Shown: piece after piece, positions 3,362 to 16,960 of the stretch | Layout: the number at the start of each line of letters is the position of its first letter | Position numbering within the stretch: the first letter of the stretch is position 1 | UHGV virus genome: UHGV-0068637 | Length of the DNA: 18,257 bases | Strand: one strand, 5' to 3' | DNA from: a virus | Position numbers and translations under genes: made by a program | Notes under the pieces: model-generated | Databases searched by the model: none | The model's input: the letters and a program-made list of their open reading frames with translations, nothing else | What the model was told of the DNA's origin: nothing

Positions 3362-3610
3362 ATGAAAAACGTGTTCAAAGTGGTTTTGTTCGCCACGGCT
3401 GTTGCTCTTACTGGTTGCGCTGTTGACAAGGAGGCTGCATTGCATAACCTGCCGAATAGCGGAGTGATTCCACAAGATGTCGTCTATGATGGCAGCGGTC
3501 ATCTTGTCTATGACACTGAAAAACTGCCGTATACTGGTCAATGGTGTCATGAACTTGATCACAATATGCGCCGCATCGGTAGCCCTTCTAACTGTGTAGC
3601 TAACTACTAA
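3362..3610 (+). CDS. Small secreted lipoprotein, Cor-like superinfection-exclusion candidate
   Basis: 82-aa ORF with a signal peptide and lipobox (MKNVFKVVLFATAVALTG|C), a good RBS, and an intrinsic terminator immediately downstream. It is opposite-strand to, and sandwiched between, the J-like gene and the tail fibre, the position where cor-type lipoprotein morons sit in phi80/N15/T1-like phages. The function is inferred from context only. Confidence 0.65.
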   Translation: MKNVFKVVLFATAVALTGCAVDKEAALHNLPNSGVIPQDVVYDGSGHLVYDTEKLPYTGQWCHELDHNMRRIGSPSNCVANY

Positions 3611-3613
3611 AAG

Positions 3614-3644
3614 AAAACCCCGCGCGAAGCGGGGTTGTTTTTTA
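3614..3644. terminator. Bidirectional rho-independent terminator (lipoprotein gene / J gene convergent)
   Basis: Hairpin CCCCGC-GCGAA-GCGGGG followed by TTGTTTTTT on the plus strand, with an A-run on the other side giving a T-tract on the minus strand. Lies between the convergent stops at 3610 (+) and 3642 (-). Confidence 0.75.
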
Positions 3645-6600
3645 TATCCATGTTCCTGAACTTCTTGTTATAAGTATTAAACCTGGTTTTCTTATTGCTG
3701 CATTAGATGTATTGGTAAAGTTTTCCGTCACCTCTACTGTAATTGTTGGGTATGTGAGGCCAGATACACAGTGCACCGCGACAGTTGACATTGCTGGGGT
3801 TGATGCTGGCCTTTCTATATTAATTGTTTTTTGGTGTCCGCTTATATTTATAGTTACATTGATGCGAGAAGATTCACTATATGTATAGTATGACAAATCA
3901 TACGGAATCATAACGTAAACTGTTTTTGATAAACTTGATGAACTTGAATCAAGATAAGTTTTCGAAACGCGCCTGCTGCCATTTCCCCTCATTGACGGAA
4001 ATACATCCTCGTTTATCACTGACATACTTGCTACGTCACCAACAAAACTTGTAGCTTCAACTGCTCCAGTAAATTTACCGCCAGTTGCGTAAACAGTACC
4101 GTTAAACACACCAGCATAAGCGTATACCGTACCCCTTACGGTTACCTGGTTAAATACTGCGTCACCGGCTTTATCTATCGCCCATCCTGTACCGTTTTCC
4201 CAGCTGTAATTAACTGACTGTATTCGATCAGCTATTTTGGCGGAGTTGATAGTTCCGTCCTTAATAAACGCTTCTCTTACATACATTGCGCCATTGGTGA
4301 CATAGAAAGGCGTTATATATGTGCCGTTTGCTTCCGTCATCAACACGAAGCGGTCAACAAGGAAGATACACTGCGACTGGAAGTTAGTACCATCACCAGT
4401 GAGGCCAAGCGACATACCTGTCGCGTACGTCTTGCCGTAGTTGTCGGTTGCCAGCTTGATAGAGTACGACGCATCAACATTGCCTTTGAAGTCGGTCAAT
4501 GCTTTGGATGTCGTTTCTATTGCCGTTTTATTCCCGTTAACGGTCACTGTTAGCTGATCGATTTTCGTTGATAACGCCTCGTCAGCCGTAGCCATCGCCT
4601 GCGACCATTCAGTGATACTTGCGTCTACCAGTTCGAAGGACGCTGAGATCTGGCTGAATTTTTCAGCGTTTGATTCCTCATGCGTAGCTAGTGCCGTTGA
4701 TACCTCAGATACTTTCGAGTTGATTTCACCGGTAAGCGATGCGCTAAGGCCGCTTATTGCGTCTGCGCGTGCTTTTGTTTCGTCGGCGATAGCCTTGTCC
4801 ATCCTGGTAATGTTGCTCGTTACCTTGCTGTCAAGCGTTGAGATTGATGCATTCACACCGCTGATTGCTTCGCCGCGTGCACTGGTTTCGTCCGCAATGG
4901 CTTTATCGAGGCGGTTAATGCTTGCTTCCGTTTTCTTATCAAGATCTGTGATAGATGCGTTCACACCACTAATGGCTTCCGCTGTTGCCTTTTTCTCTTC
5001 CGCCATAACCTTGTCAATGCGGTCGATTTTCGCATTGGCTTCCCTGATCCCTTTCTTGTATTTGGCTGAAAGGGCAACATGCGTGTTGGTCTGAGCGATT
5101 GAGTTATTGATAAGTGCAATCGAGGTATTCTGCATACTTGCTTTGGTCTGGTTGATTTCATCGCTGTTTTTCTCAACGTTGTTTTCAACCGCACCAAGTT
5201 CGGCGCTGATACCGGATATTGCCTGCGCACGGGCGCTTGACTCGTCGGCAATGGCCTGATCCAGGCGCTTGACGCTGGCGTTTGTGTTGTTCTCAAGCGT
5301 TGTTAAGTCTGCTTTGACCTCTGTTATTGCGTCACTTCTTGCCTTCGTTTCGTCTGATATTGCTTTATCAAGGCGGGAAACGCTGGCGTCTGTTTTCTTG
5401 TCAAGGGTGTCGATCGATGCCTTCACGCCACTGATGGCCTGTGCGCGTGCGCTGGCCTCGTCAGCGATTGCCTGGTCGAGTCTGTTCACCTCTGATTCAG
5501 TGTTGCCTTCAAGCGTGCTGATGCTTGCATTAACGCTGCTGATAGCGTCAGTGCGTGCCTTCGTTTCGTCTGCAATCGCTTTATCAAGGCGATTAACGTT
5601 ACTTGTTACCTTGCCGTCAAGTGTGGAGATTGATGCCTTCACACCATTGATGGCTTCGGTTCTCGCGCTCGTTTCGTCGGCAATAGCCTTATCAAGGCGG
5701 CTTATGCTTGAATCGGTTTTCTTATCAAGTGCTGATACTGAGGCGTTCACCCCATTGATAGCTTCTGAGCGTGCGCTTGTTTCGTCTGCAATAGCTTGAT
5801 CCAGACGTTTAACGCTGGCGTCTGTTTTCTTGTCAAGTGCTGAAATGCTTGCGTTAACGTCGCTGACAGCCTGGGTTCGTGCGCTCGATTCATCGGCGAT
5901 TGCCTGGTCCAGACGTTTAACGCTGGCGTCAGTTTTCTTGTCAAGATTGTCTATTGAGGCGTTCACACCGTTAATAGCTTCGGCGCGTGCGCTGGCCTCG
6001 TCAGCCACTGCACGTTCCACGCTAGAAATCTGACCTTTAAGGTTGGAATCCATCGTGTTCATTTCTGCCGTGATGGTTTCCAGTGATTCCGCTGTCGCTT
6101 TTTTCTCTTCAGCGATAACGTTGTCAATACGGTCAATTTCCGCTTTCGTTTCCGTCCTGCCTTTCTTATACTGGGCGGTAAGGGTTACGCGCGTGTTTGT
6201 CTGTGCAAGCGAGTTGTTGATAAGCGCCAATGAAGCGTTTTGCAGGCTTGCTTTTGCCTGTGCCAGTTCGCTGTCAACTTTTTCGCTTGACACTTCTAAT
6301 AAGTCGATTCTGGACTCATGCTGACCAATATCATCGGCGTTCTCTTTAACTTTTTTGTAGAGATCTTCCGTTTCTTTTTTAAGCGTATCGGTGTCAGCTT
6401 TTATTGTTCCTGTTTCCGTGATCAGATTGTCAGTGTCAGTCCTTAAATCTTCAGTTATGTTGTTCAGGTTGTCGGTTTCGGTCCTTAAATCTTCAGTTAC
6501 GCTGGTAAGGTTGTCAGTTGTAGTTTTGAGGCTGTCAGTAGCAGTTTTCAGTTCTTCCGTGACACCATCAATGACATCGGCGCGGTCGCCAAGATCTTTG

Positions 6601-9083
6601 ATGTCACTAATCATATCTTTGAACTGCTCAGACTCCATGACGTCCTTCATCACGTAGTCGCTGATTTCGTCGAAGTTTTCAGTCGGTTTACCTGATGCCT
6701 CAACGAAGTCTGACACACCAAAGGCATTGCGCGTGCGCACATAGACGTAATAGGTGCGGCCCGTGTTCATGCCGCCAAACGTCCACTGATAACCACGTCC
6801 GGTGTATTGTGCCTTAGTGGTCACTGATGCCGGATCTGTGATTTGATTTTCACCAGCGAAATAGAACTCATAACTAGTGTCAGTGGTGAGCGTTGTTCTG
6901 CTAATCGGGTAAACTGTGGCCTGAAATACACCAGGAACCCAGTTGACACCTATCGGGGCCGCTGGCGCACCAATAACCAGGTCCACAATGCTTTCCGCAC
7001 CCTTCATGCCCGTGTCGTTTCTGCCACGGATGCCTAACGAATAGGTTCCCGCATCAATGCCATAAAAATCATGGCTGTAATTAGTGGTTTCGTAGTATTT
7101 AACCACCGCTCCCGCTGTATTGTATACGCGGATCTCAAAGGTAAGACGATGAGTTGTTGTCATCGTTTCCCATGTTGCGCGACATTGAACCGTTTCGGAT
7201 CCAACGTTCATCACTTTCAGGTTTTCAATGTTAGGCACGCGGAAGTGATTGAGCGTGTCGTTGTTGACTTCAAAGACTGCACCTTCATCAACTACAGCCT
7301 GTTTGTGAGGATCGTGCTGTGCCGCCTCTATGGTGTACACGCTGTTGTTTTCAGTTTCCGCAACGCTGACGATTCGACATAACACGGGTTTAGCTGCGTC
7401 TGTTGACACGGCGAACACAGTACCGTTACGAATCCATGCAGGGGCGGATGCAAGGGTAATTTGGTTCACGTTAACACCAGTGATCTGATGTTTTTTAAAC
7501 TTGCCATCACTGTCAAGCAGGCTGATGGTATCACCAGGGGCGATATATTCAGAGTCAACATTATCTACAGTGATAACCCTGCCACTGTTTGCCACGATGC
7601 GACCGCCCAAACGAGCGCCTGCGCGGTTATTGTCGAGTATCTCGATAATATCACCAGGGGTGAAGTGAATCGCGTCACGGGCCATTTTAAACGTGAATTT
7701 TGAGGGTTCGCGTTTTGCTGTTTCTATCAGCCATTTGCCAGCGCGGTAAGCCTGCCCGCGTGACGTGCAACCAAAAGCCTCCAACGTGGTTTCGTTGTAA
7801 CCATCGCGGGCGATCAGTTCATCATCTGCTACGTATTCTTTTGATTGTTCCCAACCGTTTTCCGGGTCAGTCCATGACACAATCACAGCGTTGTAAGATT
7901 CCGCGCGGGCGATACTTGAACGAGTAAATGCGCCATCAACGACGTTTGCATTCGTGATGGTGGCAATTGGATCTTGCGGTGCATCAATCATCACCGTAAG
8001 GCGCTGCCCGTCCCATAACGCGATACCACGGAACATGCCTGCAATGTTGTCCAGCAAGTCGCGGGCGCTCATTTGCTCAGTGATGTAAGCGTTAAGCGTC
8101 ATGCGTGGTTCAAGGCCGCCGTAACCGTCGTTTACCAACTGGTCGCAGTATTGAGAAAGCACATATAATGCGCCATCATCAACGTCAATGTAACCGGCGT
8201 GGCGGGTAAGCCCGAAGCGTTCATTTTTCACCAGATACCGGAAAAGCCATGCAGGGTTGTTGGTGTATGCCTTTTTGAAGCCACCAAGCCATAAACCTGA
8301 GTATGTGCGTGTTTCCGGGTCGTAGTTATCAGGCACGTCAACAATCAGGCCGCGCATGTGATAGGTGCGTGTCGGCGTGTCGGTATACTGATCGTGGTCA
8401 ATTACCGCGCCTGCTACAGCGGTGTGAGGATAAGACAAGTTATCGTCTATTATCTCGCTGTAACTGCTCCACCTGGTGTCATTGCGAAGTAGATCGCTTT
8501 TACTGTCTGGCGTTACGCGACGAACGCGAATATCAAACGGTTTTTCATCCGGCGCTTGGATGATGTGCGCTTCCATATACTCGCCGCTTTGTTTACCAGG
8601 GCCAATGGTAATATCTTTGACTAGTGACCACGTTGTTGACGATGATGGCTTAACATCAACCATCAACACAACAGATGTATTGTATTGATTGCCCTTGTCA
8701 TCTGACTGAACCAGAGAATCAACGCCAAGATTCAGCCTTACGCGGTTAACGTTTGGATCTGAAACGGTCCTGATTATTGGCGTATCGTGAGTCACTTTTG
8801 CGTTAACAATAACGGTTGATTCAATGGCGTTGAAGCCGTTGATTGGTGACTGGTCAGCCGTACCATTACGCCACGCCACGCTAACGCCAGGGACCGATGT
8901 GCCGCCGTTGGCGTCAGTGATTGGGCTGTCATTAAGCATTACGCTGTTTAATGGCGCTTTCTGGTTTACAGGGCCGTAGATTGGGCCTTCGCTGAGAATG
9001 TCCAAAACACGATAAAACTGTTTATGAAACAGGTTATCGTTTAATAATGTTGGTGTTTTGGCTTTGCCGCCGCCGCTACTCAT
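3642..9083 (-). CDS. J: Host specificity / central tail fibre protein (lambda J family) with large coiled-coil repeat insertion
   Basis: 1813-aa ORF with AGGAGA RBS. The N-terminal ~800 aa is collinear with lambda J ('ILSEGPIYGPV', 'NPAWLFRYLV...RFGL', 'LSQYCDQLV.DG.GG.EPRMT.NAY', 'EAFGCTSRGQAYRAGKWLI'), followed by FN3-like segments. The C-terminal ~300 aa is a J-like receptor-binding region. About 650 aa of repeat-rich alpha-helical sequence sits in between. Confidence 0.9.
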   Translation of the reverse strand: MSSGGGKAKTPTLLNDNLFHKQFYRVLDILSEGPIYGPVNQKAPLNSVMLNDSPITDANGGTSVPGVSVAWRNGTADQSPINGFNAIESTVIVNAKVTHDTPIIRTVSDPNVNRVRLNLGVDSLVQSDDKGNQYNTSVVLMVDVKPSSSTTWSLVKDITIGPGKQSGEYMEAHIIQAPDEKPFDIRVRRVTPDSKSDLLRNDTRWSSYSEIIDDNLSYPHTAVAGAVIDHDQYTDTPTRTYHMRGLIVDVPDNYDPETRTYSGLWLGGFKKAYTNNPAWLFRYLVKNERFGLTRHAGYIDVDDGALYVLSQYCDQLVNDGYGGLEPRMTLNAYITEQMSARDLLDNIAGMFRGIALWDGQRLTVMIDAPQDPIATITNANVVDGAFTRSSIARAESYNAVIVSWTDPENGWEQSKEYVADDELIARDGYNETTLEAFGCTSRGQAYRAGKWLIETAKREPSKFTFKMARDAIHFTPGDIIEILDNNRAGARLGGRIVANSGRVITVDNVDSEYIAPGDTISLLDSDGKFKKHQITGVNVNQITLASAPAWIRNGTVFAVSTDAAKPVLCRIVSVAETENNSVYTIEAAQHDPHKQAVVDEGAVFEVNNDTLNHFRVPNIENLKVMNVGSETVQCRATWETMTTTHRLTFEIRVYNTAGAVVKYYETTNYSHDFYGIDAGTYSLGIRGRNDTGMKGAESIVDLVIGAPAAPIGVNWVPGVFQATVYPISRTTLTTDTSYEFYFAGENQITDPASVTTKAQYTGRGYQWTFGGMNTGRTYYVYVRTRNAFGVSDFVEASGKPTENFDEISDYVMKDVMESEQFKDMISDIKDLGDRADVIDGVTEELKTATDSLKTTTDNLTSVTEDLRTETDNLNNITEDLRTDTDNLITETGTIKADTDTLKKETEDLYKKVKENADDIGQHESRIDLLEVSSEKVDSELAQAKASLQNASLALINNSLAQTNTRVTLTAQYKKGRTETKAEIDRIDNVIAEEKKATAESLETITAEMNTMDSNLKGQISSVERAVADEASARAEAINGVNASIDNLDKKTDASVKRLDQAIADESSARTQAVSDVNASISALDKKTDASVKRLDQAIADETSARSEAINGVNASVSALDKKTDSSISRLDKAIADETSARTEAINGVKASISTLDGKVTSNVNRLDKAIADETKARTDAISSVNASISTLEGNTESEVNRLDQAIADEASARAQAISGVKASIDTLDKKTDASVSRLDKAISDETKARSDAITEVKADLTTLENNTNASVKRLDQAIADESSARAQAISGISAELGAVENNVEKNSDEINQTKASMQNTSIALINNSIAQTNTHVALSAKYKKGIREANAKIDRIDKVMAEEKKATAEAISGVNASITDLDKKTEASINRLDKAIADETSARGEAISGVNASISTLDSKVTSNITRMDKAIADETKARADAISGLSASLTGEINSKVSEVSTALATHEESNAEKFSQISASFELVDASITEWSQAMATADEALSTKIDQLTVTVNGNKTAIETTSKALTDFKGNVDASYSIKLATDNYGKTYATGMSLGLTGDGTNFQSQCIFLVDRFVLMTEANGTYITPFYVTNGAMYVREAFIKDGTINSAKIADRIQSVNYSWENGTGWAIDKAGDAVFNQVTVRGTVYAYAGVFNGTVYATGGKFTGAVEATSFVGDVASMSVINEDVFPSMRGNGSRRVSKTYLDSSSSSLSKTVYVMIPYDLSYYTYSESSRINVTINISGHQKTINIERPASTPAMSTVAVHCVSGLTYPTITVEVTENFTNTSNAAIRKPGLILITRSSGTWI
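4730..6040 (-). repeat. In-frame 108-bp tandem repeat array (about 10 copies, 36-aa unit) inside the J-like gene
   Basis: The motif 'tcaag...gcgcgtgcgctggcctcgtcagc' recurs with exact 540-bp (5 x 108) spacing, e.g. 5401 vs 5941 and 5451 vs 5991. The protein unit is 'DKKTDASVKRLDQAIADESSARTQAVSDVNASISAL' and variants. The array is split into two blocks (about 2.5 and about 7.5 copies) by a duplicated ~250-bp spacer segment. Confidence 0.85.
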
Positions 9084-9096
9084 GGTTTTTCTCCTG

Positions 9097-9627
9097 TTAA
9101 CTTACAACGTCAAGGGCGTCTCTGTTGTTGCTTGTGTCTATGCCTAACGACCCGACATTTGAACCTATTTTCATTTCACCCAACAGGATTGGCACTGGTC
9201 TACCCTGTCCTACTTTGTTCTCAATGCTGGTGTATGTGTTGTTAGATATGGTGTTATCTTGTGCGCTTTCTGCTGATGTTTTTATCTTCATGTTGCGTGA
9301 CATAAAGATCGAGAAAGCAACGCTAACAACAGAAACACCGATTAAAATCCAGCCTACAACGCCAATCCCAGCAATACCACCTTCCACCACTGGCGCAACA
9401 ATCACTGTAGTTCCGTCAGGGTATTTACTATTAACCGCTGCCGGGGCCGTCTTTTCGTCATAATCTTTTCCGGCAATTCGTAAGCGCAAAGGTGTATTTA
9501 AAAAAGCCTTCTTGAACTCCTGATCCTGCGCGGTCAATATGCTAAGTCCTTGCGCTGGCGTATCAACGTTTAAACACACCTTGCCGTAATATCTTCGAAG
9601 ATTGCCCGTAAATCTAAATTTGAGCAT
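9097..9627 (-). CDS. I: Tail assembly protein I-like
   Basis: 176-aa ORF overlapping the 3' end of the K-like gene, as in lambda. The C-terminal 'ISNNTYTSIENKVGQGRPVPILLGEMKIGSNV' matches the lambda I 'NTYFSSLDNMVAQGNVLPVLYGEMRVGSRV' region, and there is a hydrophobic central segment. Confidence 0.8.
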   Translation of the reverse strand: MLKFRFTGNLRRYYGKVCLNVDTPAQGLSILTAQDQEFKKAFLNTPLRLRIAGKDYDEKTAPAAVNSKYPDGTTVIVAPVVEGGIAGIGVVGWILIGVSVVSVAFSIFMSRNMKIKTSAESAQDNTISNNTYTSIENKVGQGRPVPILLGEMKIGSNVGSLGIDTSNNRDALDVVS

Positions 9628-10301
9628 TTGTCAGATCTCCATATTGAATTAGTCTGTCGAACATACGCGGGCCGCATTTGCTCGCGGCGGCTTAACAGTC
9701 CGGCATTGTCATGATGCAAAACAGTGTTGTCACCAAGGTAAATCATCGCGTGGCATGGATCTGCACCCTTAAACGGCTGACGAATAATCACATCACCAGG
9801 CTGAATACTTTGCGCGTCAACCATGAAAAACCCGTTCAATGGCAGGTTTTTTATGTACAGGTTTTCCCCACGCAGCCACCACCCATCGTGGCGCTCAAAG
9901 TCCGGCAGATCCACGCCGCAAAGGTGATAGGCGTCACGAAAAAGCGAGTAACAATCCGTTTTCCCGTGCTCAAATTTACGGCCCAACAGGTGCGCAACCG
10001 GGCGGAATTTTCTTACCATGCCACCGGAACACAAATACCACGGCAGGCCGGAAATAACCTGTTGCTGCCGATCCCGTGCTGACAATACCAACGAATCGTC
10101 AGTATGGGAGTGAAAAACGGCTGTTATAACGCCTAATTCGTCAGCTTTGATATAATCGTCAGGCGAGATTTTAAAGCTGTTGTGAGGCGTTTCAGACACG
10201 TTTAAACACGGGTAAAAATAATCGTTATCTATCACCAGCCCGCATACTTCCTCGTCAGGGTGGGCCGCTGCATAGCGAATCATTTTATCTTCAAGCGCCA
10301 T
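9570..10301 (-). CDS. K: Tail assembly protein K-like (MPN/JAB + NlpC/P60 domains)
   Basis: 'HPDEEVCGLV...HSH' (JAMM-like) followed by 'GKTDCYSLFRDAYH...QPGDVI...HAMIYLGDNTVLHH' (NlpC/P60-like), collinear with lambda K. Start chosen at the ATG at 10299-10301 (AAGGTGGG RBS) rather than the TTG at 10307 used by the ORF track. Confidence 0.85.
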   Translation of the reverse strand: MALEDKMIRYAAAHPDEEVCGLVIDNDYFYPCLNVSETPHNSFKISPDDYIKADELGVITAVFHSHTDDSLVLSARDRQQQVISGLPWYLCSGGMVRKFRPVAHLLGRKFEHGKTDCYSLFRDAYHLCGVDLPDFERHDGWWLRGENLYIKNLPLNGFFMVDAQSIQPGDVIIRQPFKGADPCHAMIYLGDNTVLHHDNAGLLSRREQMRPAYVRQTNSIWRSDKCSNLDLRAIFEDITARCV

Positions 10302-10303
10302 AA

Positions 10304-11008
10304 TCAACCCACCTTGCTGGATCCTGGGAAACAGGAAATTGGTAACGGATTAGGACGCGGAAAACGCAAACGGCAACCGCTCAGGCGGTGGCTGCATTTA
10401 TCCAGCTTCGGATCACTGGTTGGCTTGTCTTTGTCAGTAGCTACGGGGCCGCCACTGTATCTGCAACCGTCACCGCGATATTGCCACTGGCAAACGTCAG
10501 CGAGGATTGTGCGCCCAGGTATAACCGCTTTATCTGCATCAATTGGCGTTGACAGTTCATATTGCACCTGGTCCGCTGTTTCTTCGCTCATCGCTTCAAC
10601 GACGTAAAAAGATACAGCCTCAATAGATGGATCTGCATCCGGGTTGCCATTGGGGAAGTTGACGGCGTCCAGGTATTTTACTTCCACCTGGCGGCGTGTA
10701 ACCTTCATTCCTCGCAGATCGTTGAAATCGTTATTCATCCCAGTGATTAGGCCGCCAATGTTGGCTACGACCATTTGGGGGCGTGAGTAAACGCCTTCGT
10801 TTTTCATTTCGAAGCCAGTAGCCTCGATTGGGTAGCTGTTGTAAGCCAATCCCTTCCAGATAACCGGGCCGTAATAGCCATTCGCGCCGGAATGGAAGCG
10901 GATAACCTCGCCACCCAGGGGCGTCAGGTCCAGTTCAAATAAGTCAATGACCGCGCCGACTCCGGCATCCACGGAATCAATAATCATTTCTGTAGGTATG
11001 CTGCGCAT
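10304..11008 (-). CDS. L: Minor tail protein L-like
   Basis: 234-aa ORF with AAGGTGA RBS. 'VIDLFELDLTPLGGEV..F', 'GLAYNSYPIEATGFEMKNEG', 'KYLDAVNFPNGNP', 'ILADVCQWQYRGDGCRYSGGPVATD...DKCSHRLSGCRLRF' are collinear with lambda L including the Cys cluster. Confidence 0.85.
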   Translation of the reverse strand: MRSIPTEMIIDSVDAGVGAVIDLFELDLTPLGGEVIRFHSGANGYYGPVIWKGLAYNSYPIEATGFEMKNEGVYSRPQMVVANIGGLITGMNNDFNDLRGMKVTRRQVEVKYLDAVNFPNGNPDADPSIEAVSFYVVEAMSEETADQVQYELSTPIDADKAVIPGRTILADVCQWQYRGDGCRYSGGPVATDKDKPTSDPKLDKCSHRLSGCRLRFPRPNPLPISCFPGSSKVG

Positions 11009-11061
11009 TTTATCACCTTGTCATTTTGTGATCGCCATCACGCTAAATCATACCAAAACGG

Positions 11062-11093
11062 TTGATCGCGTTTTTTACAATATGTATATTGTA
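11062..11093 (+). promoter_or_regulatory. Candidate sigma70 promoter with palindromic operator for cassette A
   Basis: TTGATC (11062-11067), 17-bp spacer, TATATT (11085-11090). The perfect inverted repeat TACAATAT-gt-ATATTGTA (11076-11093) overlaps the -10. Confidence 0.4.
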
Positions 11094-11136
11094 CTCAAAA
11101 GGAAGCATGGTTAACAAAATGGCGCGGAGGTGTGAC

Positions 11137-11292
11137 ATGGCTGATAAGGTGTGGAGGTTGACGGTGTTCCTTAGTGATGGCAGGGAAATGACTGTGGCCC
11201 TGTATAAAGATGAAGGCGAGGCACTTACTGACGCGCTATTACTCGCTGAAGACGAACGCGTTTTGGGGTACAGGATCGAACCTGTCAAATGA
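11137..11292 (+). CDS. Hypothetical small acidic protein (cassette A, ORF1)
   Basis: 51-aa ORF, GGAGG 6 nt upstream of the ATG. First gene after the candidate promoter. No recognisable family. Confidence 0.5.
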   Translation: MADKVWRLTVFLSDGREMTVALYKDEGEALTDALLLAEDERVLGYRIEPVK

Positions 11293-11307
11293 GGGTTATA
11301 ACAAAAA

Positions 11308-11661
11308 ATGGAAAAATACAGATTAGACGTGTGGACTGATAAATACGAATGGGAACGCATGGGGCTATTTGATACATATGAATCAGCGTGTGATGAAGGT
11401 AGTGAATTACTGCGCTGTTGGTCTAATGCTCGTTATTATTATGTTGTTCCAGTACAAGTACCGGATAAGGTGGAAGAGATGAACCCGAAAGATATTAACT
11501 TTAACGTCAATGTTGAATTTGCAGACTCTATGGATCAGGCTTGCCCTGGTGAAATACACGCAAAAGGTTTTCCGGCTGACGATCCAGAAGCAAAACGAGA
11601 ATACGAAAAAGCGGCAAAAGACTTCTGCATAGATAACCTGGGCTGTTTTAATGGCAAATAA
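11308..11661 (+). CDS. Hypothetical acidic Cys-containing protein (cassette A, ORF2)
   Basis: 117-aa ORF with protein-like composition, whereas the antisense frames are Phe/Cys/Ile-rich junk. Lies in an AT-rich region. RBS is weak. Confidence 0.55.
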   Translation: MEKYRLDVWTDKYEWERMGLFDTYESACDEGSELLRCWSNARYYYVVPVQVPDKVEEMNPKDINFNVNVEFADSMDQACPGEIHAKGFPADDPEAKREYEKAAKDFCIDNLGCFNGK

Positions 11662-11676
11662 ATAGTAGGCCAATAT

Positions 11677-11916
11677 ATGAAAATGATTGGTATTATAAAA
11701 CTCGTTGTTACATCTAACAAAAGGGAGGATTTTAATATAAAAGATAGATACCCATTATTCAAAACATCTTCTGGCAATTATTTTACTGTTGACAACTGTT
11801 TAAACTTTGTTCCGCTGACTGTGCTTGATATTTCTGGAGCAAGGGTGAAAGGGTACGGAACTGCTTGCGGTGATGATTTTGTGCCTGATATGCTATTTTT
11901 TGAAACGTGGGAATAA
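11677..11916 (+). CDS. Hypothetical protein (cassette A, ORF3)
   Basis: 79-aa ORF, weak RBS, start could be 11677 or 11683. No recognisable family. Confidence 0.45.
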   Translation: MKMIGIIKLVVTSNKREDFNIKDRYPLFKTSSGNYFTVDNCLNFVPLTVLDISGARVKGYGTACGDDFVPDMLFFETWE

Positions 11917-11921
11917 AAATC

Positions 11922-12188
11922 ATGGGGCGGCGCAATCACGGTGATTATGTGTACACGTTGAAACAGGCCGCCCGCCTCATCGGTTATCATGAGCACGAAT
12001 TTATTAATTTGCTGATTGAGCGCGGGATACTTTACCAGGTCTGTTTAACGCTGTACCCGAAAGCTAAATACCTACAGGAAAAGTTATTCATCATCATGAC
12101 GGATGAAAACCAGGTCAATCACTCATTCGTCACTGATAAAGGTGTCAACTATCTGCGCGATAACTTACAGGGCGGCAATTATGGATAA
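11922..12188 (+). CDS. Putative small helix-turn-helix DNA-binding protein (cassette A, ORF4)
   Basis: About 89 aa from the ATG at 11922 (the ORF track uses GTG at 11907). The N-terminal 'YTLKQAARLIGYHEHEFINLLIERGIL' has the pattern of an HTH recognition unit (excisionase / AlpA / MerR-like). Confidence 0.5.
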   Translation: MGRRNHGDYVYTLKQAARLIGYHEHEFINLLIERGILYQVCLTLYPKAKYLQEKLFIIMTDENQVNHSFVTDKGVNYLRDNLQGGNYG

Positions 12189-12252
12189 GGTTATCGAAAA
12201 TGTTTTGGTAGTGGCTGGCGCAATTGCCATCGTTTATGCCTTTATGAACTAA
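12181..12252 (+). CDS. Possible 23-aa hydrophobic peptide (cassette A, ORF5)
   Basis: MDKVIENVLVVAGAIAIVYAFMN. Overlaps the stop of ORF4. Very short and hand-called, so it may not be translated. Confidence 0.3.
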   Translation: MDKVIENVLVVAGAIAIVYAFMN

Positions 12253-12263
12253 TGGGGTGAATC

Positions 12264-12401
12264 ATGAAAATCGAAGTTTTAGCACTGATTGTAATGGGCT
12301 TGATTGTCTTCGGTGTTCACGCTGCTGGTTGGGACTGGGCGGCAATAGCAAACAACATGGCGCACGCTCACCCAATGAGTTTGCTGTATATTCACTACTA
12401 A
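12264..12401 (+). CDS. Small single-pass membrane peptide (cassette A, ORF6)
   Basis: 45-aa ORF, GGGGTGA RBS 4 nt upstream. The N-terminus 'IEVLALIVMGLIVFGV' is hydrophobic. A terminator follows directly. Confidence 0.45.
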   Translation: MKIEVLALIVMGLIVFGVHAAGWDWAAIANNMAHAHPMSLLYIHY

Positions 12402-12403
12402 CA

Positions 12404-12440
12404 AGAAAAACCCCGCGCGAAGCGGGGTTGTTATTATACG
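12404..12440. terminator. Bidirectional rho-independent terminator (near-identical copy of the 3614-3644 hairpin)
   Basis: CCCCGCGCGAAGCGGGGTTGTT is identical to 3618-3639. There are A/T runs on both sides, between the convergent stops at 12401 (+) and 12434 (-). Confidence 0.7.
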
Positions 12441-12631
12441 CCATCAACCAAAAATAAAACCTCCTTGCCTTCCCTGGATCTGCATCCCACATACCCGTCA
12501 CCAACATCATGAAGATACCAGGTATCGCCATTGTCAGCCTTTACAGTAAGGTCGTTGATCTCATAGTCGTCAAACAATGTAAAAGCGTCAGTTTTGTCAA
12601 CTACACAAGTCCCGTACATAACAACCTCCAT
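12434..12631 (-). CDS. Hypothetical 65-aa protein translationally coupled to M
   Basis: Its ATG (12629-12631) overlaps the TAA of the M-like gene (TAATG arrangement). Same strand as the tail genes, followed by a terminator. No recognisable family. Confidence 0.45.
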   Translation of the reverse strand: MEVVMYGTCVVDKTDAFTLFDDYEINDLTVKADNGDTWYLHDVGDGYVGCRSREGKEVLFLVDGV

Positions 12632-12984
12632 TAGCCAACAACTTGTTCAAACGTTGCGTTTAGCGTGTACACAGGCCCGTCCTTAGTCATACTCCAGCTA
12701 CGGCAAACAAAAAGCCTTTGCACGCCATCCATAGACGGCGACCAGTAAAAAGCCTCGACAGCGCCGCGCGCCCTCAAGAATGCTTCTGCCTGGATCGCCA
12801 CGTTTCCACCATCACCGCATCCTGCGCTACTGCCTTTAAAAACCAGGGTGTATTTATCAAGTAATGTGTTAATCCCTTTCGCCTGGCGCTGTTCATATCC
12901 ATCACCAAGTTTAATGACTGACACATTTGGTTCCCTGGTCACGCTGTAGCTTCTTTGTGGCGTCCATTTGAAAACTTCAGGCAT
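12631..12984 (-). CDS. M: Minor tail protein M-like
   Basis: 117-aa ORF with GGGGGA RBS. 'KLGDGYEQRQAKGIN', 'FYWSPSMDG', and the C-terminal 'TLNATFEQVVG' match lambda M ('RFGDGYSQRAPAGLN', 'FLWTPPYE', 'EFSAEFEQVVN'). Confidence 0.85.
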   Translation of the reverse strand: MPEVFKWTPQRSYSVTREPNVSVIKLGDGYEQRQAKGINTLLDKYTLVFKGSSAGCGDGGNVAIQAEAFLRARGAVEAFYWSPSMDGVQRLFVCRSWSMTKDGPVYTLNATFEQVVG

Positions 12985-13073
12985 GATTCCCCCTATAAGT
13001 TACATATTGCATACATCTTTACGCGCTTCTACGCGAAAAATTAGAACTTCGTCACAAGAATTATACCCAGTTT

Positions 13074-13112
13074 ACAAAATGGCTTCACACAGGACGTAAC
13101 AAGATGTATATA
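13074..13112 (+). promoter_or_regulatory. Candidate promoter for cassette B carrying the conserved ACAAAATGGCTTCAC motif
   Basis: ACAAAATGGCTTCAC at 13074-13088 is identical to 16293-16307. -35-like TTCACA (13084-13089), 17-bp spacer, -10-like TATATA (13107-13112). Confidence 0.35.
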
Positions 13113-13154
13113 GGAAGCAAGAAGAGAAAGCAGTACCAACAAAGGAGGGGCATC

Positions 13155-13310
13155 ATGAAACGCTATGTAGTGGTAATGCTGAACAACGCATTCGAACAGG
13201 TGGAAGTAGCGATCGTTAAAGGCTTCGATGACGCATTCAAATACGGTCAATTCATGATGAATGCAAAAGAAGATGAATACCGTGATTTCTTCCTGAAAGT
13301 GGTCAGCTAA
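13155..13310 (+). CDS. Hypothetical small protein (cassette B, ORF1)
   Basis: 51-aa ORF with a very strong RBS (AAAGGAGGGG) 4 nt before the ATG. No recognisable family. Confidence 0.55.
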   Translation: MKRYVVVMLNNAFEQVEVAIVKGFDDAFKYGQFMMNAKEDEYRDFFLKVVS

Positions 13311-13328
13311 TGGATTGTGGGGTGGGTT

Positions 13329-13583
13329 ATGAAATTGGTGGCGATTGGTAAAAACCTGAAAGCACAGAAAAACGCACAGGACCGGATCATCAAAAAGGGC
13401 AAGGCCTTATTAAACGCTTTCCTGAAAAAAGAGGCCAACCCCAAAAAATTACGCGATGGCTACGGTTATAAATTTGACATCAACCCCGATTGGCGGTTAT
13501 TCAGCGAAGATCTAAAGATGTGGTTAATTATTGACCATCTGGAATACAACCGCCACTGTGGAGTAAAAGGGGCGCATAAATGA
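13329..13583 (+). CDS. Hypothetical lysine-rich basic protein (cassette B, ORF2)
   Basis: 84 aa from the ATG at 13329 (the ORF track uses GTG at 13317). GGGGTGGG upstream. The N-terminal half is highly basic. Confidence 0.5.
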   Translation: MKLVAIGKNLKAQKNAQDRIIKKGKALLNAFLKKEANPKKLRDGYGYKFDINPDWRLFSEDLKMWLIIDHLEYNRHCGVKGAHK

Positions 13584-13591
13584 GGTGAAAT

Positions 13592-13684
13592 ATGGATGAC
13601 GATAAATTCACCTGGCGGGAGATCTGGAGCATCTGGCAGGTGATGTTTGCTCGCAGCTATATAGCAAGAAACGGAAGATTGTGA
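13592..13684 (+). CDS. Possible 30-aa peptide (cassette B, ORF3)
   Basis: MDDDKFTWREIWSIWQVMFARSYIARNGRL. GAGGTGA RBS that overlaps the ORF2 stop. Short and hand-called. Confidence 0.35.
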   Translation: MDDDKFTWREIWSIWQVMFARSYIARNGRL

Positions 13685-13702
13685 TTTGCGGAGGAAAATA
13701 AA

Positions 13703-13879
13703 ATGAAAAACCCGGCAAATAAAAGCAACGTAAAACGTATGGCGTGGGTGCTAAAATATATGGATAGTAAAGGGGATACATATACATGCCCATTTTTCAG
13801 GTATACTGACGCGGTATTTGCCAGAAGTGTACACGGAGGGAAAATTGAAAGAGGGTATACAAGTTTTGAGAATAACTAA
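13703..13879 (+). CDS. Hypothetical 58-aa protein (cassette B, ORF4)
   Basis: GGAGG RBS 8 nt upstream. Followed directly by a terminator. Confidence 0.5.
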   Translation: MKNPANKSNVKRMAWVLKYMDSKGDTYTCPFFRYTDAVFARSVHGGKIERGYTSFENN

Positions 13880-13884
13880 AAGAT

Positions 13885-13918
13885 AACCCCGGCATTGTAC
13901 CGGGGTTTTGTTTATTTG
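13885..13918. terminator. Bidirectional rho-independent terminator (cassette B / H gene convergent)
   Basis: Hairpin AACCCCGG-CATTGTA-CCGGGGTT followed by TTTTGTTTATTT. On the minus strand a T-rich tract follows the stem. Directly abuts the H stop at 13912-13914. Confidence 0.75.
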
Positions 13919-16251
13919 CGGCGAGGTTGCAACATTCCGCCAGGTCGTTGCGATTCCCTTGCCATCATTTTCATTGCTACGCGTTCCATTGTCTGTTCAA
14001 GCCTGCGACCGTCTTCGTCGCTAAATCCGTTTGTGGTCTGTACGGTGATGTTAACAGGCATATTGATGCCGCCACCATTGAAGAGATCGCGGCCAGGAAT
14101 AACCCTGCCATTTTCCCCAGGAATCATATACTGACGCCCGTTGCTCGTCTGGAATAACTCAGGAATCCCGTGTTCCCCTACGCGATACAGACTTCCACCA
14201 TTAACAGAACCACCATTATAACGTCCGCCGCCAAAAATTGACGTTGCCAGCGACATGATCGCAGAAAGTGCCGCAGCACCAGCCGCCGCCCAGCTACCAC
14301 CAGTTGACGCAGCCGTTGCCGCAGCCGCCGGGGCCGCCGCCGCAGCAATCTGACCTTGCGCCGCCACCGCGCCAGCCGTTGTACTTGCCTGGGTAGCCTT
14401 GCTTTGCGTTTCCATCATCAACTGATCTGCTATCCAGTTGGCGGCAATTTCTGATAGTTTGTTGCCAACGGTGTTAAGTATGCTACTTCCCAGGTTAGCA
14501 AAAACCTCGCTTAGTGATTGAGTACCGTTCAACAGGCCGGTAAGCGCATTACCCATGCCACCTTTTAGGCCACTGACACAAGCGCCGATCAGGCCGTTTG
14601 TGTCGCTCTGTGCCTGCCATTGTTCCCATTTCAGATCTCGGATCTGTTGCTCGTATTCCAATTGCGCCTGTCTCTGTTGCGCCTCTGTAGCGCCCAGGTC
14701 CAATAGCATTTGTTTTCTTACAGCCCATTCATTTTGCGCCTGCTTGATTGGGTCAATTTCTCCCTTAAGCTGGTCCATCGGGCTAACTATGTGGTCCCAT
14801 TTGTCGCGTAGCTCATCAACAGGGATCTGAGCTAATTCGTCTTTCAGTTCCTTGCCTATTCCTTTTTGCGCGGCCTTGTACTCAAGGAGGGTTATTTTGC
14901 CCTGGGCGAATGCAGCATCAATGGCCTTGCCGTTCTCCAGCGCTTTACGCATGGCGGCGGCGTCCTTGTTGTACTGGTCGGACACTTTTATACCTTCATC
15001 ACCAAGCCGATCAGCTTCGGATTTCTTTTGTTTTTTAGGTTTTTTCGGCTTACCAACTGGCTGATCGAATCCTGTGATCTTGCCATCGTCAGCCTCACCC
15101 TGTTTCTCCATGAACTCATCATATGCGGCGGTTGCGTTTTTAATGTCGTTTGCAAACGTCATTACTTTGCCAACGGTAGGGCCAAATTTCTTCTCGTTGT
15201 TGCTGTTTAGCTCTTCTTTGCGTTTGTCTACGATCTCCTTCATCCATTTGTAGCCATCCATTAGCGCCTTGATTGGCGTCACCATCCTGATGATTTCTTC
15301 CGCCACCTCGCCAGCTTTAACAGCAACATCGTCAAATATGTCGATGAACTCGCTACCAGCGGTTTTCAGTGTATTGAAACAGGTTGCGGCGAATTTTGCG
15401 CCTTTACCCAATCCCTCAACGCCACCAGTGATTAAGTCTATTGCTGTAACAACGCCGTCAGATATGCCGAAAAGATTATCAAGCTCTTCGACAACGCCCA
15501 TCATCTCAACTTTAAGCTCGTTGAAGGCTATGCCTGTTGTGCGCGGCAATTGTGCGAACTTCTCGTTTGTTTCCTGCGTGGAGGCCTGGATCGCGTTGAG
15601 CATCCTTTCAGCCGTGATCTTACCGTCCAGCATTTCAGCGCGGAACTGACCCATAGATAACCCCATTTGGCGGGCCATTTCCTGTACGATTGTTGGGGTA
15701 TTGTCGCGTATTGAGTTAAATTCTTCCGCCTGCAACACGCCAGCATCAATAGCCTGGCGGAACTGGCGCATGGAGTTAGATAACTGTTCCGCAGACACGC
15801 CGCCCAGACTACCAAGTTTTTGTAGCGTGCTAACCAGGTTGAGCACCTGGCCTTCCGTAGCGGATGTATTTTTTAGCGATATAGCAAGCCCTTGCCACAG
15901 GTCGCCAGTATCCTTGAGGCTTTGGCCTGTTTCTTTTGATATATCTTTCAGTCTGTTGAAAACACGTTCCGTGGCCTCCGCTTCACCTGTGAGCAGTTTG
16001 ATTTTTACGCGAAGCATTTTTGCTTGCTCCGCCATGTCAATAAACTGGCGCACAGCCTCCGCAGCAAGTAATAGATGGATAACCCTGGACAGTGCTTTGA
16101 TTGAAGTCTTAAGCGTGTTTACCTGGCGGTCAGCGCGTTTTGCGCCACGCTCGATGCTGTCAAATGCCTGGTCTGCCTGTCGTTGAGCAACGAGAAGTTG
16201 ACCAGTTTTTGCATCAACTTCGTAATAGATTGTACCTAAACTGGTTGCCAT
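13912..16251 (-). CDS. H: Tail length tape-measure protein (H-like)
   Basis: 779-aa ORF with GAGGT RBS. The N-terminal two-thirds is alpha-helical and rich in charged residues. There is a Gly/Ala-rich hydrophobic stretch near the C-terminus (AAQGQIAAAAAPAAAATAAS...SIFGGG) and a terminal 'GGSLYRVGEHGIPELF' region like lambda H. It sits directly upstream of M. Confidence 0.85.
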   Translation of the reverse strand: MATSLGTIYYEVDAKTGQLLVAQRQADQAFDSIERGAKRADRQVNTLKTSIKALSRVIHLLLAAEAVRQFIDMAEQAKMLRVKIKLLTGEAEATERVFNRLKDISKETGQSLKDTGDLWQGLAISLKNTSATEGQVLNLVSTLQKLGSLGGVSAEQLSNSMRQFRQAIDAGVLQAEEFNSIRDNTPTIVQEMARQMGLSMGQFRAEMLDGKITAERMLNAIQASTQETNEKFAQLPRTTGIAFNELKVEMMGVVEELDNLFGISDGVVTAIDLITGGVEGLGKGAKFAATCFNTLKTAGSEFIDIFDDVAVKAGEVAEEIIRMVTPIKALMDGYKWMKEIVDKRKEELNSNNEKKFGPTVGKVMTFANDIKNATAAYDEFMEKQGEADDGKITGFDQPVGKPKKPKKQKKSEADRLGDEGIKVSDQYNKDAAAMRKALENGKAIDAAFAQGKITLLEYKAAQKGIGKELKDELAQIPVDELRDKWDHIVSPMDQLKGEIDPIKQAQNEWAVRKQMLLDLGATEAQQRQAQLEYEQQIRDLKWEQWQAQSDTNGLIGACVSGLKGGMGNALTGLLNGTQSLSEVFANLGSSILNTVGNKLSEIAANWIADQLMMETQSKATQASTTAGAVAAQGQIAAAAAPAAAATAASTGGSWAAAGAAALSAIMSLATSIFGGGRYNGGSVNGGSLYRVGEHGIPELFQTSNGRQYMIPGENGRVIPGRDLFNGGGINMPVNITVQTTNGFSDEDGRRLEQTMERVAMKMMARESQRPGGMLQPRRK

Positions 16252-16289
16252 GATTTAACCTCATGAAAGTGTGATCTAGATCTCTATTC

Positions 16290-16331
16290 TATACAAAATG
16301 GCTTCACTTCAACGTATACATTTTGTATAAA
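16290..16331 (+). promoter_or_regulatory. Candidate promoter/operator for cassette C with conserved motif and 11-bp inverted repeat
   Basis: TATACAAAATG (16290-16300) and CATTTTGTATA (16319-16329) form an inverted repeat. ACAAAATGGCTTCAC at 16293-16307. -35-like TTCACT (16303-16308), 17-bp spacer, -10-like TATAAA (16326-16331). The palindrome GATCTAGATC lies just upstream (16273-16282). Confidence 0.35.
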
Positions 16332-16407
16332 GAAGTCAAAGGAAAGGGATTGAGCGAATGGATTCAGAAGGCCGGATGAACCGGAGGAAGCAAAAGAGGA
16401 TAAGAAA

Positions 16408-16494
16408 ATGAAAAACTACTACCGACCCAACGAGCATGAGCGTTATGCCGACTTCATCGAAGAAATGCTGAAAGCACTTAAAAACAAGAAATAA
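16408..16494 (+). CDS. Possible 28-aa peptide (cassette C, ORF1)
   Basis: MKNYYRPNEHERYADFIEEMLKALKNKK. AGAGGA RBS. A 17-aa upstream mini-ORF (16358-16411) overlaps its start. Confidence 0.35.
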   Translation: MKNYYRPNEHERYADFIEEMLKALKNKK

Positions 16495-16507
16495 ACGGGT
16501 TGGGTAA

Positions 16508-16615
16508 ATGGACACAATCAAAACGTTTATAGATGTATATATTACAGCATGGTTAGCATTTAATGTGATGGCTGTGCTAGTGCTGGCAATGACAACCGAA
16601 GATAAACGTAATTAA
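16508..16615 (+). CDS. Possible 35-aa membrane peptide (cassette C, ORF2)
   Basis: MDTIKTFIDVYITAWLAFNVMAVLVLAMTTEDKRN, with one hydrophobic helix. Its stop overlaps the next ATG (TAATG). Confidence 0.35.
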   Translation: MDTIKTFIDVYITAWLAFNVMAVLVLAMTTEDKRN

Positions 16616-16929
16616 TGGGGGTTATCATGGAACTGGTAATTGCATTCATCGGCTTTATCGCAACTATGGTTGTAGCTCAGAAAAAACATCTGAATATGCT
16701 ATTGGCATTCTTTGGTGCGCTGATTTTCTGGCCTGGGGTATTGATTTACGCACTGTGCGTTAACAAAAAGATGTTTAAACACTACGTCGATGCATTGACT
16801 TTCGTTAACATGGAGTACCCAAACGCAACTGACGTACAGAAAGCACAGGTTGCAACTTACCTTTACGATAACGTGTACGATATTCACGACCTGGATGAGG
16901 CAAGATGCAGATTTGCAGCATACAAATAA
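16615..16929 (+). CDS. Hypothetical small inner-membrane protein (cassette C, ORF3)
   Basis: About 100-104 aa; alternative ATG at 16627 preceded by GGGGG. Two predicted TM helices (LVIAFIGFIATMVVA, LLAFFGALIFWPGVLIYALCV) then a soluble tail. A terminator follows directly. Confidence 0.55.
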   Translation: MGVIMELVIAFIGFIATMVVAQKKHLNMLLAFFGALIFWPGVLIYALCVNKKMFKHYVDALTFVNMEYPNATDVQKAQVATYLYDNVYDIHDLDEARCRFAAYK

Positions 16930-16934
16930 AAATA

Positions 16935-16960
16935 AAGGCCCGGTTAATTCCGGGCTTTTT
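16935..16960. terminator. Bidirectional rho-independent terminator (cassette C / chaperone gene convergent)
   Basis: Hairpin GGCCCGG-TTAATT-CCGGGCC... followed by TTTTT on the plus strand and by TTTATTTTTATTT on the minus strand. The stop codon of the minus-strand gene lies in the loop. Confidence 0.7.

Follow-up and report, generated by a model that had tools for sequence, protein, structure and literature searches.

An 18,257-nucleotide stretch of UHGV virus genome UHGV-0068637 (hereafter the window) was analysed around a block of low guanine-plus-cytosine (GC) content at positions 11040-12440, between the phage tail genes L and M, which is here termed cassette A. The cassette is genuine and self-contained: within the tail genes of an E. 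coli prophage from the mEp021 (mEpimmI) group, a set of small genes has been inserted in reverse orientation. It can be explained, with a probability of about 0.6, as a multi-gene moron operon that is near-fixed in the mEpimmI coliphage lineage and forms an autonomous unit lying antisense in the late tail operon. It is read in this way because the features that define a moron (PMC3594210) are largely present, and because the same window holds a precedent, a gene for the exclusion lipoprotein Lpp010. The features present are extra DNA separating genes that lie side by side in relatives, a deviant GC content and a terminator; mobility is missing, with the families of the first two products, A1 and A2, found only in E. 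coli mEpimmI-type prophages.

The assignment to this phage group follows the 2.7 kb around cassette A, which share 89-93 % identity with the E. coli phages mEp021, mEp554, mEp013, mEp515, mEp010, mEp044 and MagusPhagus. Over the cassette region, the identity to the first five of these amounts to ~91-93 %. Partial matches to the same region occur in 34/5,426 complete E. coli genomes, and are chromosomal in every case. The mEpimmI group of the mEp phages was described in an earlier study, in which its prevalence matched that of lambdoid phages among Nus-dependent mEp coliphages from human faeces (PMC11893012). The cassette A genes are already annotated in the mEp phage records, as hypothetical proteins and one "putative antirepressor", with A1-A2-A4 covered by gp71-74 in mEp021.

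Gene content and control region of cassette A

Relatives of the locus were collected using L as probe (80 IMG/VR loci and 12 annotated loci), and those with an L at least 85 % identical and a readable M-L gap constitute, with this window included, a set of 54 genomes. Ratios of non-synonymous to synonymous substitution (dN/dS) were computed over 13 genomes and later over ~40 non-identical genomes. An earlier reading of the letters alone (the original prediction) had proposed six plus-strand open reading frames (ORFs) with their own promoter and terminator, and six such genes, A1 to A6, span positions 11137-12401:

A1, 11137-11292, plus strand: 51 amino acids, isoelectric point (pI) 4.5, phrog_29559; in 52/54 genomes; dN/dS 0.23
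A2, 11308-11661, plus strand: 117 amino acids, pI 4.45, 5 Cys; in 53/54 genomes; dN/dS 0.24
A3, 11677-11916, plus strand: 79 amino acids, in a variable slot between A2 and A4; in 8/54 genomes; dN/dS 0.44 (n=5)
A4, 11922-12188, plus strand: 88 amino acids, phrog_5689, PF03374; in 53/54 genomes; dN/dS 0.11
A5, 12181-12252, plus strand: 23 amino acids, hydrophobic, grand average of hydropathy (GRAVY) 1.41, in a variable 3' slot, its start overlapping the end of A4; dN/dS 0.20 (n=4)
A6, 12264-12401, plus strand: 45 amino acids, GRAVY 0.99; in 37/54 genomes; dN/dS 0.21

All six are under purifying selection, with dN/dS below 1 in every one, and are real genes; the flanking tail genes L and M give 0.05 and 0.08, respectively, for comparison. 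ORFs antisense to these genes within the cassette are not conserved, being broken or truncated in relatives. The GC content of 11040-12440 is 0.420, with a skew of +0.18, against 0.522 in L and 0.494 in M, both of which have negative skew, and the lower GC of the cassette relative to its neighbours is thus borne out; the slightly shifted interval 11009-12433 likewise gives 42 %. The initial description of the products was likewise accurate in naming two acidic proteins (net charges of -4.5 for A1 and -11.4 for A2), the larger one with five cysteines, and two hydrophobic peptides.

The 128-bp intergenic region between L and A1 is strongly constrained, with a p-distance of 0.10 against synonymous values (pS) of 0.32-0.48 in the flanking genes, which makes it 3-4x more conserved. 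This region and the opposite end of the cassette contain the following elements:

CRP-like site, 11027-11042, no strand assigned: TGTGA-N6-TCACG (TGTGATCGCCATCACG), 9/10 core positions
Predicted sigma-70-like promoter, 11062-11090, plus strand: -35 TTGATC, 17-bp spacer, -10 TATATT; 9/12 consensus matches
Perfect 18-bp palindrome, 11076-11093, no strand assigned: TACAATAT-GT-ATATTGTA, overlapping the -10; p-distance 0.044
Minus-strand promoter-like site: TTGTTA at 11117-11112, 18 bp, TACAAT at 11093-11088, the -10 being supplied by the palindrome
A1 leader, 11111-11136, plus strand: includes an invariant 22-nt block at 11111-11132, p-distance 0.000 over 13 genomes
Bidirectional intrinsic-terminator hairpin, 12409-12429, no strand assigned: -16 kcal/mol, z = -3.3, between the convergent A6 and a 65-amino-acid ORF

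The TTGATC-17-TATATT site is the sole plus-strand promoter-like site ahead of A1. Its -35 hexamer has a p-distance of 0.075 (13 genomes), and the promoter is also kept in a natural deletion variant, L045, described below. The promoter proposed for the cassette is plausible, in the form of a conserved predicted promoter-like site within a constrained intergenic region. The ribosome-binding site of A1, GGAGGTG at 11126-11132, falls within the invariant block of its leader. At the other end, the terminator had also been correctly foreseen, as the records of the mEp phages mark one at the position of the hairpin, with that of mEp021 doing so for both strands; in the window the T-run is better on the minus strand.

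The consensus half-sites of CRP are TGTGA-N6-TCACA, and in class I CRP promoters of the lac type the site is centred at -61.5 (or at -71.5, -82.5 or -92.5). In the site upstream of cassette A the two half-sites have p-distances of 0 and 0.056, and the 6-bp spacer diverges at 0.338, the neutral rate (13 genomes). With conserved half-sites and a neutral spacer, this is the pattern expected of a site for a dimeric protein. Measured from the start that the -10 at 11085-11090 predicts, the centre of the site (11034.5) is ~61.5-62.5 bp upstream. The region resembles class I CRP promoters in its 9/10 core match, conserved half-sites, variable spacer and predicted spacing, but differs from them in that the start is a prediction from the -10 hexamer alone. 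CRP possibly binds at this position, which would give catabolite control of cassette A. The palindrome is unique in the window (0.06 expected) and, because it both overlaps the -10 and supplies a minus-strand -10, is a candidate operator or core of a bidirectional promoter, and may serve as either. A role as an operator shared with other loci was discarded, since a scan of viral contigs found the palindrome once per contig among the related phage contigs listed, and no similar repeat occurs in the mEp021 immunity region.

Comparative anatomy of the M-L junction

The tail-gene block around cassette A is laid out as follows:

Tail gene J, 3642-9083, minus strand
Tail gene I, 9097-9627, minus strand
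Tail gene K, 9570-10307, minus strand
Tail gene L, 10304-11008, minus strand
65-amino-acid acidic ORF, 12434-12631, minus strand: phrog_3249, dN/dS 0.12, overlapping the M stop codon
Tail gene M, 12631-12984, minus strand: Pfam Phage_min_tail
Tape-measure gene, 13912-16251, minus strand

The presence counts in the 54 genomes indicate that A1-A2-A4 form a fixed core, and that content varies in two slots, the first lying between A2 and A4 and the second following A4. Apart from A3, A5 and A6, the M-L gaps of the set hold an alternative 24-amino-acid hydrophobic peptide (13 genomes), a 67-amino-acid protein (11 genomes) or an HNH endonuclease-like ORF (1 genome). The A3 module has clean boundaries, running from the last A2 codons to the A4 start. 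For A5, tblastn matches were obtained at 3 of the first 12 loci and in only a minority of the whole set of 54 genomes. The M-L gap measures 1199-1894 bp here and in 53 relatives, with this window carrying one of the fullest versions of the cassette. In L045 (IMGVR_UViG_3300045988_076424, 3873-4000) the gap is 128 bp. Everything from the A1 ribosome-binding site through the 65-amino-acid ORF is deleted in this variant, and the whole promoter region up to GTTAACAAAAT, including the CRP-like site and the palindrome, is retained and fused to the M start region. Cassette A can thus be lost.

Many phages of a sister group, in which L is ~72 % identical, have M and L 45 bp apart with only a hairpin between them, and others carry 300-1300 bp of unrelated low-GC cargo at this point, mostly on the opposite strand. 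Since the gap is either empty or occupied by unrelated cargo in the sister group, the M-L junction is an insertion hotspot, a possibility that had been raised for a synteny check. Conserved structural genes on the tail strand, which the original prediction had named as an outcome that would refute it, were not seen at M-L in relatives. The placement of the island between L and M stands with regard to the sister group; its immediate right neighbour, which forms its right boundary, is the 65-amino-acid tail-strand ORF rather than M. This ORF is missing from the sister group and from L045, and is counted with the DNA that the sister phages lack; this DNA amounts to ~1.4 kb, or 1.6 kb with the 65-amino-acid ORF. 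The suggestion of a moron-type accessory island is similarly upheld in part: the DNA is extra and on the opposite strand, but it is not sporadic, with A1-A2-A4 fixed in 52-53/54 genomes.

The cargo of one sister-group locus (L069:2700-4000) encodes a 268-amino-acid DUF6602/PD-DExK protein, which matches a PADLOC CRISPR-associated PD-DExK nuclease with an expect value (E) of 3e-26 and NucC with E 1e-13, and is a candidate prophage-borne defence nuclease. Further sister-group cargo includes a retropepsin-like protease, a sub-cut-off match to a CxxCxxCC domain and several orphans. The occupied gaps (L056-L092; e.g. L069:2700-4000 and L091:3197-4000) share an order of elements, in which a tail-strand terminator hairpin is followed by a conserved ~140-nt leader and then by the unrelated cargo. 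The hairpin that RNAalifold predicts in this leader shows two compensatory pairs as well as an invariant TCAGCC/GGCTGA helix, and Rfam yields no match. The conserved stretch could act as a promoter and leader common to interchangeable cargo genes, or encode a leader peptide for them.

The cassette A products and the roles they admit

Only A4 could be assigned to a named family. It matches the Pfam ANT/KilAC profile PF03374 with 30.7 bits (cut-off 25.3; E 4e-7; profile positions 23-106/108), and the statement that none of the products belongs to a nameable family was therefore wrong for this helix-turn-helix (HTH)-like protein. A4 represents the KilAC domain alone, with an HTH-like N-terminal part, and together with its close homologues measures 82-88 amino acids. 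No KilA-N, Bro-N, AntA/B or Rha partner domain is present, and A4 is thus not a two-domain antirepressor. Its nearest relatives outside the group, in the phage collection, are the C-terminal parts of larger Ant/Rha proteins (32-38 % identity). Against PDB sequences nothing better than E 0.8 was obtained, and the AlphaFold2 model is poor (predicted local distance difference test score, pLDDT, 61), with nothing below E 5 in a Foldseek comparison against PDB. Among ANT/KilAC regulators, A4 resembles P1/P7 Ant and Listeria AriS in scoring above the PF03374 cut-off, and the KilAC domain of AriS is active alone; it differs in consisting of the domain without a partner, and the 32-38 % identity refers to Ant/Rha proteins, not to AriS. 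Overexpression of the isolated KilAC domain of AriS inhibits the SOS response, and the authors of that work describe the domain's biochemical role as otherwise unclear (PMC9043618). A4 is furthermore the most conserved gene of the cassette, as judged by dN/dS. Its pS of 0.24 is about half that of neighbouring genes (0.40-0.48), which suggests that this anchor between two variable slots either is subject to additional constraint at the DNA or RNA level or has seen recent recombinational sweeps around it.

These properties of A4 bear on an alternative in which cassette A is not accessory and serves a lineage-specific core function, for example with the KilAC protein controlling lysis-lysogeny or induction and A1 and A2 acting as its cofactors. 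The near-universal presence of A1, A2 and A4, the lowest dN/dS in the cassette and halved synonymous diversity of A4, and the occurrence of ANT/KilAC domains in antirepressors, together with the SOS modulation by an isolated domain in Listeria, are in line with such a function, and a KilAC-like protein is listed among the manually identified core proteins (PMC11893012). However, L045 lacks the whole cassette and the sister group is entirely without it, A4 has no N-terminal domain of the known antirepressors, and the palindrome occurs once per contig among the related phage contigs listed, with no similar repeat found in the immunity region of mEp021. A core function is thus considered unlikely.

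The remaining core genes encode orphan acidic proteins. A strand-strand-helix-strand pattern can be read from the A1 sequence, and its family comprises 68 clusters, with E. coli as the organism wherever the source names one and the others unnamed or metagenomic. NCBI records name this soluble 51-amino-acid protein "transporter"; neither NCBIfam, Pfam nor PHROG supports the name, which looks like a propagated misannotation. A2 consists of two modules, a variable A1-like N-domain (residues 1-50; dN/dS 0.28, non-synonymous diversity, pN, 0.26) and a strongly conserved C-module (residues 58-117; dN/dS 0.15) with the motif SMDQxCPGEIHxxGFPADDPxAKREYEKAAKDFCIDNL. With this dN/dS of 0.28, positive selection on the variable N-domain was not seen. 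The A2 family accounts for 54 clusters among 5.8 billion proteins, the named sources of which are all E. coli or uncultured bacteriophage and the others unnamed or metagenomic. An exhaustive HMMER search with the A2 profile over 1.84 billion representatives returned 15 hits only, and a profile scan of 185,579 GTDB species-representative genomes returned none. The long repeat proteins P0127, P0128 and P0132 were rejected as relatives, the matches being spurious and made of short stretches matched many times. PDB matches of the A2 profile to HepS (E 0.42) and a 16S rRNA methylase (E 0.62) were both discounted as noise, and a Pfam scan covering each member of the A2 alignment gave only scattered matches, all with E 0.035 or worse.

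AlphaFold2 models the A2 N-domain with pLDDT >90 as strand-strand-helix-strand and the C-module with pLDDT 42-56. Foldseek comparison of the N-domain model against BFVD retrieved only small uncharacterised phage proteins, DUF7336-/DUF2188-like and many of them of 50-70 amino acids, and these model-based matches indicate a fold class rather than a function. Fold searches with A2 as a whole produced only generic or uncharacterised matches. The alignment of A1 with the A2 N-domain runs from end to end (hhalign E 0.003), and one homologue, P0048, carries ahead of its A2-like part an extra N-terminal segment of similar sequence pattern; A1 and the A2 N-domain are probably paralogues. The C-module has a stand-alone relative of 56 amino acids, P0124 (profile E 4e-10), whose gene lies among consecutive small genes on an unrelated ~58-kb phage contig and which also weakly matches a Sashavirus genome. 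Given this stand-alone relative, the C-module seems autonomous.

The acidic pair suggests another explanation, an early counter-defence or host-takeover module in which A1 and A2, and perhaps the 65-amino-acid ORF, inhibit host defence or enzymes. Such a module would be expressed from the host-type promoter at DNA entry and later be silenced by antisense late transcription. The strongly acidic character of both proteins is consistent with this, as is the pairing in A2 of a highly divergent N-domain with a conserved C-module, the relative of the latter among the small genes of an unrelated phage with its weak Sashavirus match, and the resemblance of the N-domain fold to many uncharacterised phage proteins of 50-70 amino acids, e.g. 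DUF7336. However, neither protein shows homology to a known anti-defence protein, dN/dS values below 1 in both A2 modules give no sign of an arms race by this crude measure, and morons expressed from a prophage typically occupy such an antisense position far inside the late region, where a neighbour of like design carries an exclusion lipoprotein. This explanation is likewise improbable.

A3, A5 and A6 have no match in Pfam or PHROG, and no relatives of them were found outside the mEpimmI group, the tblastn matches of A5 and A6 being confined to mEpimmI phages. A6, which is unannotated in mEp021, has a single hydrophobic, transmembrane-like N-terminal stretch and occurs with two C-terminal variants. 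Neither A5 nor A6 contains a Cys, and both therefore lack a lipobox. They show no sequence relation to a characterised exclusion protein of the HK97 gp15 type, the likeness residing in size, hydrophobicity and location. The NCBIfam scan of all cassette A products gave no match, PADLOC-DB v2 gave nothing for A1-A6 and the 65-amino-acid ORF with E values of up to 1 allowed, and Rfam and tRNA scans were empty. The exclusion, anti-defence or toxin content suspected in the original prediction thus found no backing, with PADLOC, NCBIfam, Pfam and PDB sequence and fold searches yielding nothing specific and no link to such systems; since this link is absent from the searches, the ranking of cassette A as the best candidate for an undescribed accessory system is a possibility and not a result. 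The mEp021 "ipe" gene, known for a haemolysis phenotype, was also considered and does not belong to cassette A; it is gp29 and lies at another place in the genome.

A second opposite-strand, low-GC (0.419) unit, cassette B, lies at 12985-13911 between M and the tape-measure gene:

Cassette B gene 1, 13155-13310, plus strand: 51 amino acids, phrog_29810
Cassette B gene 2, 13329-13583, plus strand: 84 amino acids, Pfam PF24732 ParE_like toxin domain, E 7e-12, above cut-off
Cassette B third ORF, 13703-13879, plus strand: 58 amino acids
Bidirectional hairpin, 13885-13907, no strand assigned: end of the unit

Judged from its sequence, cassette B seems to encode a ParE-like toxin preceded by a small partner. 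By analogy, cassette A might be an addiction or abortive-infection (toxin-antitoxin-like) module in which A1, likewise of 51 amino acids and first in its cassette, neutralises the downstream A2 or A5/A6, which are hydrophobic and of the size of type I toxins, with autoregulation through the operator-like palindrome at the -10 being plausible; but this is very unlikely, considering that A2 is acidic, that neither A1 nor A2 has a toxin or antitoxin match in Pfam, NCBIfam or PADLOC that would point to a type II pair, that A1 resembles the A2 N-domain and not a DNA-binding antitoxin, and that A6 is missing from 17/54 genomes and A5 from most, which a lone toxin or antitoxin would not easily tolerate. 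Homology of A1 with the first gene of cassette B was not supported either, no similarity being detectable.

Proposed moron character and significance

The reading of cassette A as a lineage-fixed moron operon draws on two known systems. HK97 gene 15, in the tail operon, is an example of a lambdoid moron in the Juhala/Hendrix concept (PMC3594210). Cassette A resembles such morons in its extra DNA between tail genes, deviant GC, promoter-like site, terminator, small hydrophobic products and hotspot location. It differs from them in comprising six genes rather than one or two, in being transcribed against the late operon, in being near-fixed in its lineage rather than sporadic, and in not being found in any other phage context. 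The second system lies in the window itself:

Lpp010-like lipoprotein gene, 3362-3610, plus strand: 82 amino acids, lipobox LTGC, between J and the downstream fibre gene

Its product is 98.8 % identical to mEp010 gp116 (Lpp010), which has been shown experimentally to exclude mEp010, mEp044, mEp554 and lambda (PMC11893012). The Lpp010/Lpp021 cassettes of that study share with cassette A the same genome and the design of an opposite-strand low-GC unit between tail genes; unlike cassette A, which has no lipoprotein, they consist of a single lipoprotein gene with demonstrated exclusion. A third low-GC gap (0.385-0.41) is found at 16252-16943, just past the start of the tape-measure gene and before the next minus-strand ORF of the tail module. 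It contains a 104-amino-acid ORF (16615-16929, plus strand), the hydrophobic N-terminal half of which may span the membrane and for which no family match was found.

Several observations weigh against the moron reading. In all 53 surveyed cassette-bearing genomes cassette A occupies the M-L locus, and only the A2 C-module has a distant relative elsewhere; unlike textbook morons, the cassette was not found in another genomic context or species. That nearly every member of the lineage has it would equally suit a lineage-specific role in the life cycle of the phage itself. No functional homologue was found for the products other than A4, which is itself only ~32-38 % identical to Ant/Rha KilAC domains, and the structure models of A2 and A4 are functionally uninformative. 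Taken by itself, the promoter match is at chance level, with 10 sites in 10800-14100 against 7.3 expected. The CRP-like site, one of two matches in the window at no more than one mismatch (0.77 expected), may be a chance occurrence, and alternatively its repeat could fold into a short RNA stem on the minus strand, just upstream of the L ribosome-binding site.

As a moron operon, cassette A would be transcribed rightward by host RNA polymerase from ~11096, independently of phage late control, and for that reason would be on in lysogens and early after infection; the CRP-like site near -61.5 would place it under catabolite control. Since the hairpin separates M from L on the minus strand, transcripts of the late tail genes have to pass through it and through the 1.4 kb of antisense DNA. 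In mEp021, which codes for a Q-like late regulator, numerous terminators lie within the late region; read-through is therefore likely to occur by antitermination, and late tail transcripts presumably cross the hairpin with the aid of the Q-type antiterminator that this phage group encodes. Antisense late transcription would then shut cassette A down by transcriptional interference. The products would comprise paralogous small acidic alpha/beta domains in A1 and A2, the latter probably binding or inhibiting a conserved host or phage protein via its C-terminal module, and a regulator, A4, for which the palindrome at the cassette promoter may be the target, or which may damp SOS or induction, as described for the KilAC domain of Listeria AriS. 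A5 and A6 may act at the membrane as entry blockers of the HK97 gp15 type. The net role of the cassette would lie in lysogen benefit or phage-phage competition, and not in virion assembly.

A bolder form of this proposal holds that A1-A2-A4, with interchangeable hydrophobic peptides, constitute an undescribed prophage system of phage competition (exclusion, defence or counter-defence), in which the C-module targets a conserved host or phage factor, and which is CRP-switched and silenced late by antisense tail transcription. This is conceivable, although doubtful. What was already known is that the genes exist in public annotation as hypothetical, and that elements of this kind occur; new are the comparative picture and the finding that A1 and A2 are orphan and modular. 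Cassette A is for now a well-behaved example of a known phenomenon and no surprise. The mEpimmI tail module is broken by several backward-facing cassettes, one of which is a proven exclusion gene, and cassette A exceeds the others in both size and conservation. As a hotspot in two phage lineages, one insert of which encodes a NucC-like nuclease, the M-L junction is a place to look for prophage-borne defence cargo. If the orphan proteins do act on targets in the host or in competitor phages, they would represent new small-protein effectors, and cassette A would provide a clear case of an accessory operon turned quasi-core.

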